Assembly: GCA_040377305.1 (NCBI GenBank) | Contig: JBEIPA010000034.1 | Coordinates: forward strand, 1-54,916 | DNA length: 54,916 bases | DNA from: Flavobacteriales bacterium | Lineage (GTDB): Bacteria > Bacteroidota > Bacteroidia > Palsa-965 | Direction: 5' to 3' | Notes under the pieces: model-generated | The model's database searches: none | What the model was told of the DNA's origin: nothing | The model's input: only the letters and a program-made list of their open reading frames with translations | Position numbers and translations under genes: made by a program | Part shown: piece after piece, positions 120 through 13,966 of the stretch | Layout of the letters: each line of letters opens with the position of its first letter | Position numbering within the stretch: the first letter of the stretch is position 1

Positions 120-149
120 GGGATTTTGACCCAATCCAATGGTTTTCAC

Positions 150-157
150 TACCTTTG
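150..157 (+). promoter_or_regulatory. Bacteroidota -7 promoter element (TACCTTTG) for thrS
   Basis: Matches TAnnTTTG consensus; lies downstream of ORF start 139, which favours ATG 205. Confidence 0.6.
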
Positions 158-204
158 GGGCTATAACAAACAGCCCTGCGTTGTATGCAGGCCCAAAACC
201 ATTA

Positions 205-2157
205 ATGATAAAAATTACTCTACCAGACGGTGCCGTTCGGGAATACGAAAAAGGCACCTCCGCGTTACAGATTGCACAATCTATCAGTGAAGGACTCGCG
301 AGAAATGTCCTGTCAGCCAAAGTAAATGGTGAAGTTTGGGATGCAACACGCCCAATCAATTCCGACTCCAGCTTACAACTTCTTACATGGAACGATACCT
401 CTGGTAAAGAAACCATGTGGCACTCCTCTGCTCACTTGATGGCAGAAGCGCTCGAAGCCATGTATCCCGGAGTGAAATTCGGAATTGGTCCTGCCATTGA
501 AAACGGTTTTTACTACGACGTCGACCTGAACGGGCACGCACTTACGCCTGATGATCTTCCGAAAATCGAGAAGAAAATCATGGAGCTTGCTCAGCAGAAA
601 AACGAATACAAGCGCAAAGAGATTTCGAAGAACGAAGCACTTGCATTTTTCACTGAGAAAGGTGATGAATACAAACTTGATCTTCTCCAGGATCTTGAAG
701 ACGGAACGATCACCTTCTACGAACAAGGAAAGTTCACGGACCTTTGTCGCGGGCCTCATATTCCGAATACGGGATTTGTAAAAGCAGTGAAGCTGCTCAA
801 CATCGCCGGTGCTTACTGGCGCGGTGATGAAACGAAGAAGCAGCTTACGCGCATTTACGGAATCACTTTTCCAAAACAGAAAGAGCTCGACGAATATCTC
901 GTAATGCTTGAAGAAGCGAAGAAACGCGATCACCGTAAACTCGGACGCGAACTCGATCTCTTCACATTCTCGGATAAAGTTGGAATGGGATTGCCATTGT
1001 GGTTACCTGCAGGTGCTGCATTGCGCGATCGTCTTCAGCAATTCTTACAGAAAGCACAAGTGAAAGCAGGATATCTTCCTGTAATCACGCCGCATATCGG
1101 CAACAAACAACTTTACATTACTTCCGGTCACTACGAGAAGTACGGTAAAGATTCTTTCCAGCCGATCAAGACTCCGCAGGAAGGAGAAGAGTTCTTCCTG
1201 AAACCGATGAATTGTCCGCACCACTGCGAGATTTATAAGAGCCGTCCGCGTTCGTACAAAGACTTACCGATTCGTTTTGCTGAATTCGGAACAGTGTATC
1301 GTTACGAACAAAGCGGCGAGCTTCATGGTCTCACACGTGTACGTGGATTCACACAAGACGATGCGCATTTGTTCTGTCGCCCGGAACAGGTGAAAGAAGA
1401 ATTCTGCAAAGTAATCGATCTCGTGTTGTACGTTTTCCGTGCACTTGGATTCGAAAACTACACAGCGCAGATTTCCTTGCGCGATAAAGTTGATCGTGCG
1501 AAGTACATCGGTTCTGAAGAGAACTGGGAGAAAGCCGAACAATCTATTATCGACGCCGCTGGTGAGAAAGGTCTGAAAACCGTTATCGAATACGGTGAGG
1601 CAGCTTTCTACGGACCAAAGCTCGATTTCATGGTGAAAGATGCAATCGGTCGTAAGTGGCAGCTCGGAACCATCCAGGTTGACTACAATTTACCGGAGCG
1701 TTTCGAACTGGAGTATACCGGTTCGGATAACCAGAAACATCGTCCGGTAATGATTCACCGTGCGCCGTTTGGTTCTATGGAGCGGTTCGTTGCGGTTCTT
1801 ATTGAGCACTGTGCCGGGAAGTTCCCGTTGTGGTTGACTCCTGAACAGGTAGCAATACTTCCGGTCAGCGATCGTTTTAATGAGTATGCACAATCGGTAT
1901 TGGACGAATTAAAAAATTCCGATATTCGTGGATACGTGGATGATCGCAGCGAGAAAGTGGGCAAGAAAATCCGCGACAACGAATTGAAGAAAGTTCCTTA
2001 CATGTTAATTGTTGGTGAGGACGAATTTGCGGCACGGAGTGTGAGTGTGAGAAAGCAAGGAGAAGCGGATGGTGATAAAGGGAAGATGAGCATTCAGGAG
2101 TTCGCGAACTTGATCAACAGTGAAGTGAACGAGCGACTTGCTTCTATCGCACAGTAA
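205..2157 (+). CDS. thrS: Threonyl-tRNA synthetase
   Basis: TGS N-terminus (MIKITLPDG), [10 protein letters not shown] editing motif, [25 protein letters not shown]; upstream of infC. Start moved from 139 to ATG 205. Confidence 0.98.
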
Positions 2158-2196: not shown

Positions 2197-2250
2197 ACAA
2201 AACAGAACACGAGTAACAATAAATAAACAGAAGTAGCACAAACTCGTCAG

Positions 2251-2275
2251 CCTTCGACTCCGCTCAGTCTGACAA
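2251..2275. repeat. Single REP-like unit (CCTTCGAC-NNN-GCTCAGTCTGACAA family)
   Basis: ccttcgactccgctcagtctgacaa, nearly identical to the left arm at 13334-13359. Confidence 0.8.
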
Positions 2276-2334: not shown

Positions 2335-2958
2335 ATCGCAGCTCCATTTAACAAGAAGCCCTTTGGCACTGGTCCTGGAAGACCATTCACACCGGGCGGA
2401 TCACGTCCACCATTTAATCGTGGACCACGCACACCACGCGTAAAAGAAGAATTGCACCGCATCAACGAAAAAATTCGTGATGTAACTCAGGTGCGTGTTG
2501 TAGGCGAAGGCATTGAGCCTGGCGTTTACGCAATCTCAAAGGCACTCGAGATGGCTAAAGAAGCCGAACTCGACCTTGTGGAGATAGTAGCCGGAGCAGA
2601 TCCTCCCGTATGTCGTATTGTCGACTACAAGAAGTTTCTTTACGAACAGAAGAAGAAACAGAAGGAGATCAAGTCTAAGGCACAAAAAGTGGTCGTGAAA
2701 GAAATCCGATTCGGTCCACAAACCGATGATCACGATTTCAATTTCAAGAAAAATCACGCGCTCCGCTTCCTTGAAGAAGGTGCGAAAGTGAAAGCATATG
2801 TAATGTTCCGCGGCCGATCAATCGTGTTCAAGGAACAAGGTGAAATTCTTTTGCTGCGTTTTGCACAGGAGTTGGAAGAGTTCGGGAAAGTTGAAGGACT
2901 TCCACAGCTCGAAGGCAAGCGTATGCAGATGATGATTGCGCCTAAAAAGAAAAAGTAA
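2335..2958 (+). CDS. infC: Translation initiation factor IF-3, probable non-canonical ATC start
   Basis: IF3 motifs ([40 protein letters not shown]). The frame is open upstream of the track's TTG 2452 to ATC 2335, which follows GGAGGT. Confidence 0.95.
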
Positions 2959-12526: not shown

Positions 12527-13966
12527 GTGAACCTTCCTCCTTCACATCTCGAGTCTCTCAAGCAATCGCTCGGCGAAGAGTTTGATGCGTTTGCGAAAGC
12601 GTATGAGACGACCGGGCCTACATCGATTCGCATCAACACACTAAAATGGACAGGTGAACAACCAACTGATCAGATCAGGTGGAACAATACAGGTTACTAC
12701 CTCGCAGAACGCCCTTCCTTCACCCACGATCCGCTTTTTCACGGAGGATTGTATTACGTGCAGGAAGCGAGCTCTCAGTTTTTATCACATGTGGCGAAAA
12801 CTGTTTTCCCCAAAGATGTTCCACTAAAAGTTCTTGACTTGTGTGCAGCTCCGGGAGGAAAGTCAACCTTGTTGTTGAGTGAATTGAATGACGATTCACT
12901 TTTGGTGAGCAACGAAGTCATTCGAACTCGATCACACATTCTCGCAGAAAATATTGCGAAGTGGGGAAAACCAAACGTTGTTGTTTCGAATAACGATCCC
13001 GAACAATTCGAAAAACTGAAAGGCTTCTTCGATGTGATTGTTGTCGACGCTCCGTGTTCGGGCGAAGGACTATTTCGTCGCGATCCTGAACTGACCAGTG
13101 AATGGAGCGAAAGCAACGTGGACTTGTGTTCCGCGCGACAGAAACGAATTGTGATGGACATCTGGCCGTCTTTGAAAGAAGGTGGACTGCTTGTGTACTC
13201 GACGTGTACGTTTAACACGAAGGAGAATGAGGAGAATTTGCAGTGGCTATCGACGCAGATTGGATTTGAGTCGGTGAAGCTGGATGTGCCGGAGGAATGG
13301 AATATTGTGGAAACGTCATCCTCCGCATTGTCAACCTTCGACTACGCTCAGTCTGACAAAGATCGCGGCGCAAGTGACGTTGTCAGACTGAGCGTAGCCG
13401 AAGTAGACAACGGGACAGAGTCTTTGTTTGGCTACCGATTCTATCCTCACCGCGTCAAAGGCGAAGGCTTCTTCATTTCCGTCTTACGAAAAACCGAACC
13501 GCAAACTTCTTCTTCCCACAAAGAAAAAACGCTCTTCCCACCTGCTCCATCGAAAGAGAAGAATGAAGTTGCTCCGTGGCTGAAGAATGCAGAGCAATTC
13601 GATTTCGTTCGTCGTGGCGATCACGTGCTGGCGATTCAAAAACAACATACAGATATCGTGCATCGTTTATCGCGCACATTAAACTGTGTGCAGTATGGAA
13701 TTCCGGTTGCAGATGCCGGCAAAGGAATGAAACCGCTGCACGAACTGGCATTGAGTGTACATTTAAATAAAGATGCGTTTCATCAGACCGCGCTCACGAA
13801 AGAAGAAGCTCTGAAATTTCTTGCCAAAGAAGATTTCAAAGTGAACGATACGCACAAAGGAATTTCGTTGATGACGTTTGAAGGTGTGCCGCTTGGATGG
13901 ATGAATTTACTCGGCAATCGGGCAAACAATCTCTATCCAAAAGAATGGAGGATTCGTAGATTGTAA
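12527..13966 (+). CDS. RsmB/NOP2-family (RsmF-like) RNA m5C methyltransferase carrying an in-frame palindrome insertion
   Basis: YYVQEASS, VLDLCAAPGGKST, VDAPCSGEG, YSTCT, GEGFF, C-terminal NNLYPKEWRIR. Confidence 0.92.
   Translation: MNLPPSHLESLKQSLGEEFDAFAKAYETTGPTSIRINTLKWTGEQPTDQIRWNNTGYYLAERPSFTHDPLFHGGLYYVQEASSQFLSHVAKTVFPKDVPLKVLDLCAAPGGKSTLLLSELNDDSLLVSNEVIRTRSHILAENIAKWGKPNVVVSNNDPEQFEKLKGFFDVIVVDAPCSGEGLFRRDPELTSEWSESNVDLCSARQKRIVMDIWPSLKEGGLLVYSTCTFNTKENEENLQWLSTQIGFESVKLDVPEEWNIVETSSSALSTFDYAQSDKDRGASDVVRLSVAEVDNGTESLFGYRFYPHRVKGEGFFISVLRKTEPQTSSSHKEKTLFPPAPSKEKNEVAPWLKNAEQFDFVRRGDHVLAIQKQHTDIVHRLSRTLNCVQYGIPVADAGKGMKPLHELALSVHLNKDAFHQTALTKEEALKFLAKEDFKVNDTHKGISLMTFEGVPLGWMNLLGNRANNLYPKEWRIRRL
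13328..13410. mobile_element. Intragenic REPIN-like inverted repeat (about 31-bp arms, 20-nt spacer)
   Basis: ttgtcaaccttcgactacgctcagtctgacaa ... ttgtcagactgagcgtagccgaagtagacaa; same family as 2251, 13967, 18475 and 23180. Confidence 0.8.

Follow-up and report, generated by a model that had tools for sequence, protein, structure and literature searches.

We have found that the gene for an RsmF-type 16S rRNA m5C methyltransferase, located in the 54,916-nt stretch of Flavobacteriales DNA analysed here (the window), contains within its reading frame an 84-nt hairpin element, and that this element is a head-to-head dimer of a repeat unit dispersed through the same genome. The family lies in frame in at least 10 further genes with Pfam support, which agrees with the proposal in the initial annotation of this DNA that such an element is a parasite of coding sequences and a source of new loops, and gives it a broader reach than was then noticed. 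We hold with high confidence that the insert is a copy of the repeat family which the host protein tolerates as a loop. The explanation as a whole, in which the family is in addition tied to a small GIY-YIG nuclease, we regard as probable.

The host gene occupies positions 12527..13966 on the + strand and encodes 479 amino acids from a GTG start, as judged from the list of open reading frames and from Pfam, which gave the RsmF-type architecture PF17125 + PF01189 + PF13636. The solved structures nearest to the protein by sequence match were 3m4x, 3m6u and 2frx, and the matches to all 3 are interrupted across the insert interval. We observed an inverted repeat with 24-nt arms at 13336-13359 and 13380-13403, which are 96% complementary (23 of 24 positions) and have 20 nt between them; outer pairs of the form TTGTC.../...GACAA widen the element to 13328..13411 on the + strand. 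The element is 84 nt long, or exactly 28 codons, and not 83 nt as first annotated, although its recognition as an in-frame inverted repeat was correct. Codons 268 to 295 correspond exactly to 13328-13411 and encode LSTFDYAQSDKDRGASDVVRLSVAEVDN. The earlier statement that 28 residues lie between WNIVET and GYRFYPH with the frame unbroken is right as to the translation, but SSSA and GTESLF also lie between those 2 motifs. The left unit (13328..13359, + strand) consists of TTGTCAAC followed by the 24-nt arm, has an exact arm match, fits the unit consensus and reads LSTFDYAQSD. The right unit (13380..13411, - strand) is inverted, has an arm match with 1 mismatch and reads VRLSVAEVDN on the + strand. 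The 20-nt spacer at the hairpin tip (13360..13379, + strand), which reads KDRGASD(V), was found in this copy alone, other dimers of the genome having different spacers; in the orthologous gene of a near relative, G015, it is identical at 18 of 20 positions. Here and below, G000 denotes the genome to which the window belongs, and other G numbers denote metagenome-assembled genomes (MAGs) of its relatives.

The whole stretch is spanned by a contig from X1, the run from which it probably derives, and positions 12900-13430 are spanned, with 15 substitutions and no gap, by a contig from another study (run X2). Because the independent X2 contig crosses the insert without a gap, the insert is real DNA and not an assembly artefact. 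One could suppose that a repeat was misjoined into the gene during assembly or binning, given that the unit core is present at 3 of 120 contig ends and that repeats break the assembly elsewhere. We give this idea virtually no credence, since, in addition to the gap-free contig from the other study, the insert is present in the orthologue from G015 and in several metagenome proteins of independent origin, and the frame is open.

The initial annotation had also placed a copy of the arm between genes at 2251-2275, and we located this match at 2252-2275 with 1 mismatch; any match was present in 0 of 100 shuffled versions of the window. The corresponding single unit (2244..2275, + strand) begins about 90 nt past the stop of the ORF at 139..2157 and is intergenic, because it lies between that ORF and the ORF at 2452..2958; a frame scan revealed no long ORF across it. 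In the genome as a whole, the arm gave 63 matches when 3 mismatches were allowed and 74 when 4 were, whereas reversed-pattern controls gave none. The consensus derived from the 74 genomic copies is a unit of about 32 nt, TTGTCAnC-CTTCGACTCCGCTCAGTCTGACAA; the 5' ends are mostly TTGTCA and in some cases CGTCA, and GTAG is present only inside an 'A' variant of the arm, as the reverse strand of CTAC. The 171 matches to a 13-nt core at up to 2 mismatches were obtained without a control and are not taken as a copy number. Eleven head-to-head pairs can be read off the list of 74 units, with a typical arm-start offset of about 44 nt and with spacers that are not conserved.

Using a stop-to-stop frame scan together with Pfam, we detected 14 units in frame in 11 Pfam-supported genes. 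The genes for RsmF, shikimate dehydrogenase and a UvrD-type helicase contain 2 such units each, and one unit is present in each of the genes for LeuRS, MetRS, NAD synthase, a HisC-type aminotransferase, a dTDP-glucose-dehydratase-type enzyme, an S8 peptidase, an HTH+S24 repressor and a sigma factor. One further unit lies inside a 430-aa ORF with no Pfam match, and another is found in the open frame of ArgRS, 9 codons after it opens, where it may be upstream of the true start codon. Three readings are in use, which we designate by the peptides FDSAQSD (7 units), PSTPLGLT (3 units) and VRLSGVEGD (4 units); the last type is that of the right unit in the RsmF gene and recurs in LeuRS, in shikimate dehydrogenase and in a sigma-factor gene. 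The 2 frames that contain TGA are unused, so that only stop-free frames are represented, and units are found on either strand relative to the host gene. The intragenic share of the units is 19%, or about a fifth. Relative to a typical bacterial coding density of about 88%, units are depleted within genes; to our knowledge they are still far more often genic than classical REPs, REPINs being essentially extragenic.

The dispersed units also form local clusters. At positions 43206-44288 of contig C48 (670-1760 of the extracted locus L023), six units are present within 1.1 kb around an uncharacterised 193-aa ORF, and downstream of this ORF are BIME-like tandem blocks of about 143 bp, made up of dimers with a common 36-nt spacer. 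In the interior of some units a short palindrome is nested, either TCCCGATAGCTATCGGGA or a shorter version (contig C38, positions 16-60 and 175-220; contig C48, positions 1430-1465 of L023). Visual examination of the C48 and C38 clusters, with a view to an autonomous IS that would have the units as its terminal repeats, revealed no transposase-like ORF.

We compared the insertion site in RsmF both with database homologues and with orthologues from the genomes of relatives. An alignment of the query with 84 homologues, from 120 listed by database search, showed a tight turn at the insert site in all 49 homologues of 62% identity or less, 2 of which have extra residues elsewhere in the region shown. 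The short linker that the initial annotation had suggested for homologues was thus found, as was the alignment gap that it expected; compared with distant homologues, the protein has a net 32 additional residues here, rather than 28. In the 36 close sequences of the alignment the site region is 28 to 68 residues long, with at least 11 extra residues in 24 of them, and many carry unit-derived peptides in several frames (FDYAQSD...VRLSVAE, SPSTxLSLT, LSDRAEPRGD). In proteins P0023, P0024 and P0026, an 8-residue insert is nested inside the unit-coded peptide. Among 17 orthologues from relatives' genomes, that of G015 (83% identity) has a dimer of identical type in frame at the site, that of G010 has one unit (FGFAQSD), those of G014 and G007 have 8-10 extra residues, and the insert is absent from 11 more distant genomes. 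At the same turn, the G013 protein (locus L033) has a different, palindromic-looking insert of about 24 residues. The 24-nt arm of this G013 insert has 4 matches in G013 and none in G000, the control also giving none; because the arm recurs in G013 and not in G000, a second repeat family uses the same turn of RsmF.

An AlphaFold2 model built on the same alignment had a mean pLDDT of 90 and a pTM of 0.89, and the sole segment with pLDDT below 50 was residues 267-295, between strands 261-264 and 301-305. The initial annotation had suggested such modelling to look for a surface loop; the 28-residue loop is predicted to be disordered, and its position in RsmF, the protein examined, is predicted to be tolerated by the host fold as a surface loop.

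The manner in which the insert is conserved bears on what is being retained. A comparison of G000 with G015 gave, for the insert, 91.7% nucleotide identity overall and 92.9% at third codon positions, as against 78.4% and 60.4%, respectively, for the remainder of the gene; amino-acid identity is 82% in both parts. For the third positions of the insert, the binomial P is 1.3e-4, a value that is approximate in that it assumes independence of sites. Similarly, a unit shared by the UvrD genes of these 2 genomes is identical at 29 of 30 nucleotides and at 10 of 10 third positions, as compared with 55.8% for the rest of the gene. These observations show that the units are conserved at the nucleotide level beyond the needs of coding, and because silent positions are far more conserved than elsewhere, it is a DNA or RNA motif and not the peptide that is kept.

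Two other explanations for the retention of the insert can be weighed against these results. The first is that RsmF has co-opted the insert as a functional loop, for example as an RNA-contact or interaction surface. Such a role might be suggested by its maintenance in frame in 2 species and in the metagenome proteins P0001, P0003, P0006 and P0010, and by its location, which on the pattern of class I methyltransferases would be the beta6-beta7 turn on the substrate side. Yet the insert is not better conserved in amino acids than the remainder of RsmF, whereas its silent positions are much more conserved. In close relatives, moreover, the site is occupied by units in another frame, by one unit, by a repeat of another family or by next to nothing, and the modelled pLDDT is below 50 over the whole insert; we consider a functional loop very improbable. 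The second is that the hairpin acts in the mRNA, as a translational pause, an RNase site or a stability signal, which would explain conservation at the level of nucleotides rather than codons. As RNA, the 84-nt element is calculated to fold very stably, at -52.8 kcal/mol (z -8.1), a stability matched by 0 of 200 shuffles; as DNA, it folds at -29.2 kcal/mol (z -7.8). However, most intragenic copies are single units, which fold weakly (-2 to -5 kcal/mol as DNA, z +0.5 to -2.2, with an interior of roughly 20 nt), and units occur on either strand of host genes. Nor did any Rfam family reach the gathering score, the sub-threshold matches, which resemble microRNA precursors, being generic hairpins. 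We judge an RNA-level function to be improbable, and favor the reading that a copy of the repeat family has been tolerated by its host protein.

We also surveyed the distribution of the units and their turnover among species. Within the GTDB genus the arm was detected in 10 of 27 genomes and is abundant only in the clade around G000; the genus survey gave 163 arm matches in G007, 107 in G015, 106 in G013 and 71 in G000. In a sample of the phylum, at least one arm match was present in 49 of 401 genomes and 30 of 180 genera, with all controls at 0. Among the orthologues compared, a 16-residue insert in NAD synthase and a unit in MetRS were each found in G000 alone. LeuRS has 2 sites: at site A, G000 has VRLSGVEGDN, G015 has FGSAQDD in the opposite orientation, and G014 and G010 have no unit, whereas at site B, a unit is present in G014, G010 and G015 and absent from G000. 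In AroE, HisC and RfbB, units of other orientation or frame occupy the same protein sites in other species. To account for opposite orientations at one site, either units have inserted repeatedly at a few permissive sites, or ancestral dimers have lost different arms. DNA alignments of filled and empty orthologous sites revealed no target-site duplication or clean empty site, some being too diverged, and several of the apparent insertions in them resemble replacements of similar length. In the same set of genes, LeuRS of G010 (locus L087, alignment columns about 600-795) has an in-frame insert of about 200 residues that is missing in the other species. Part of it, lying between proline- and serine-rich repeats, is what we take by eye to be a DUF559/Vsr-type endonuclease domain, and the insert may represent a nuclease cassette lodged in a gene that is essential.

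The initial annotation spoke of a REP family, and this is apt insofar as the 74 units make up a dispersed repeat family, but the family is not a strict RAYT-associated REP. In the explanation that this term implies, a classical REP/REPIN family is mobilised in trans by a RAYT (Y1/HUH) protein, and the RsmF dimer is a REPIN that inserted as a single-stranded hairpin. The architecture of the units does resemble that of REPINs as described by Bertels and Rainey (2011, cited in PMC6006769), with inverted doublets that have a short spacer and form long hairpins, many singletons and clusters, and G000 has 10 PF01797 matches, 7 of them strong. Unlike REPINs, however, about a fifth of the units are intragenic, and a unit is found within 300 nt of none of 33 Y1 loci (10 in G000 and 23 in G007, G015, G013 and G010), only 3 of which have one within 1.5 kb. 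Moreover, Y1 genes are equally present in genomes of the genus that are free of units, and the one Y1 gene whose sequence was inspected, on contig C38, has the motif YI..NQ..HH (YI..NQEEHH) of subclass 1.2 in the scheme of Quentin et al. (2018, PMC6006769), a subclass reported to lack REPs. We therefore see very little likelihood of RAYT mobilisation. As a separate observation, 5 of the 10 Y1_Tnp (IS200-like) matches in G000 lie less than 3 kb from a contig end (contigs C1, C3, C19, C38 and C46), which suggests that these are multi-copy elements that break the assembly.

A different candidate for a partner of the repeats emerged from a survey of GIY-YIG genes in 5 unit-rich genomes, comprising 19 small and 11 large loci. 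Units were present within about 250 nt of 4 of the 19 small loci (twice in G015, once in G007 and once in G439, a genome of another family), and near none of the 11 large ones. When the G015 nuclease was used as a query across the genus, unit-type repeats were found beside the gene at 9 of 12 loci, a count that rests on 14-nt matches between flanking repeats taken without a shuffle control and that becomes 8 of 11 if the locus from the unpublished genome G012 is left out. Eight of the 9 loci have inverted repeats on both flanks; in G010 the repeat is downstream only, since the contig ends upstream. Exact repeats flanking genes of the G015 type reach 30-32 nt. Small single-domain GIY-YIG genes bracketed by units are present in G015 (2 copies), G007, G014 and G439, and the arrangement recurs in variant form in G011, G018, G008, G019 and G012. 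The proteins of the 2 cassettes in G015 are 88% identical to each other. The G015 nuclease matches Pfam PF01541, its nearest PDB chains are the UPF0213 proteins 1zg2 and 1ywl, and NCBIfam has no family for it.

None of the 8 GIY-YIG matches in G000 itself has a unit within 3 kb, and its closest counterpart of the G015 nuclease shares only 41% identity with that protein and has a different repeat, tagged CGTCAT, on its flanks. Because no close homologue of the nuclease was found in the G000 assembly, the units of G000 may be orphans. Similarly, no GIY-YIG gene adjoins a unit in G013 (106 units, 82% complete) or in G383 (58 units). From the bracketed loci, we think it rather likely that the nuclease is the cognate protein of the units; that it also moves them is possible but doubtful.

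The arrangement at the bracketed loci resembles the NTS-ssnA-NTS organization of the Ssn nuclease and its NTS/SRM repeats, as given by Chenal et al. (2025, PMC11893778), in that the small GIY-YIG gene of the relatives lies between inverted repeats. The 2 systems also differ: the units fall outside the published SRM pattern, which has 9 matches in G000 that overlap 0 of the 74 units; the nuclease is nearest to UPF0213 structures; and no cognate gene was found in G000. Overall, a tie between the family and an Ssn-like nuclease is plausible. If it behaves as SsnA does with its NTS repeats, the nuclease would recognize the unit as single-stranded DNA, and the family might spread or be maintained through interaction with the nuclease or by gene conversion between copies. 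The RsmF gene probably acquired the dimer before this species and its nearest relative diverged, and the host protein is predicted to tolerate it because it forms a disordered loop on the surface, where a beta-hairpin turns; selection would retain only insertions that are free of stops, are multiples of three and lie in loops or linkers. A broader conjecture, which we put forward as unlikely, is that small, Ssn-like GIY-YIG nucleases copy hairpin units into coding DNA and that the nucleotide-level conservation of units in essential genes reflects their upkeep as targets of the nuclease. The units could then serve as marks governing whether single-stranded DNA is taken up or recombined between related strains, and the same engine would underlie RPE-type insertions in Rickettsia, CPR bacteria and Bacteroidota.

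Rickettsia palindromic elements (RPEs) are the established case of in-frame insertion (Ogata et al. 2000 Science, 2002 Genome Res, cited in the MITE review PMC10969869). As they are described in that review, the likeness is close in that a dispersed palindromic repeat lies in frame in unrelated housekeeping genes, is absent from orthologues and is compatible with the fold. In contrast, RPEs are about 150 bp long, whereas the unit found here is about 32 nt (11 residues) and its dimer 84 nt; also, the present family belongs to Bacteroidota that are free-living by the look of the genome, and it uses three reading frames. There is no reason to expect sequence homology to RPE-1 through RPE-10, the likeness being one of functional class. 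Intragenic GTAG/CGTC REPs (PMC3733652) are also similar, occurring as singles and dimers inside genes, often those for tRNA synthetases and UvrD-type helicases, where they encode 20-30 residues and are argued to occupy loops or linkers. Those REPs are tagged stem-loops, however, while the units described here have a 5' tag that is mostly TTGTCA and form only a weak hairpin when single. Bacteroidetes are named only once in that paper (Di Nocera et al. 2013, PMC3733652), for CGTC repeats, and neither 'Bacteroid' nor 'intragenic' occurs in the main text of PMC11893778. Searches of the literature on Bacteroidetes with in-frame REP insertion and on SsnA with repeats yielded only the RPE, GTAG/CGTC-REP and Ssn papers; their scope was the papers themselves, and supplementary tables may list Bacteroidota families. 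The family is a new Bacteroidota member of the RPE or intragenic-REP kind.

The survival of short selfish repeats in essential genes is a rare and direct route to new peptide segments, known best from Rickettsia. Here, the same process is seen in a free-living lineage of Bacteroidota, in which units come and go quickly at the few loop sites that each protein permits. With a tiny GIY-YIG nuclease as the candidate enzyme, the old question of how such elements enter genes becomes accessible to experiments at the bench. In practical terms, the units inflate and fragment alignments of marker proteins such as LeuRS, MetRS and RsmF, and they break assemblies.

Some additional features of the nuclease and transposase loci may be recorded. 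In G000, a small GIY-YIG gene on contig C56 (71489-71734, within the interval 71326-71970) is accompanied by 19-nt inverted repeats that begin ACCGTCAT, and this locus constitutes a second, CGTC-tagged pair of nuclease and repeat. In G015, the region immediately upstream of each unit-flanked GIY-YIG gene contains a motif of the form AAACATAAACGTTTGAAAACGGCT (positions 1395-1440 of loci L236 and L241). A similar stretch, made up of AAACGTTT repeats, is found upstream of a Y1 transposase-like gene on contig C38 of G000 (positions 2340-2400 of locus L003).
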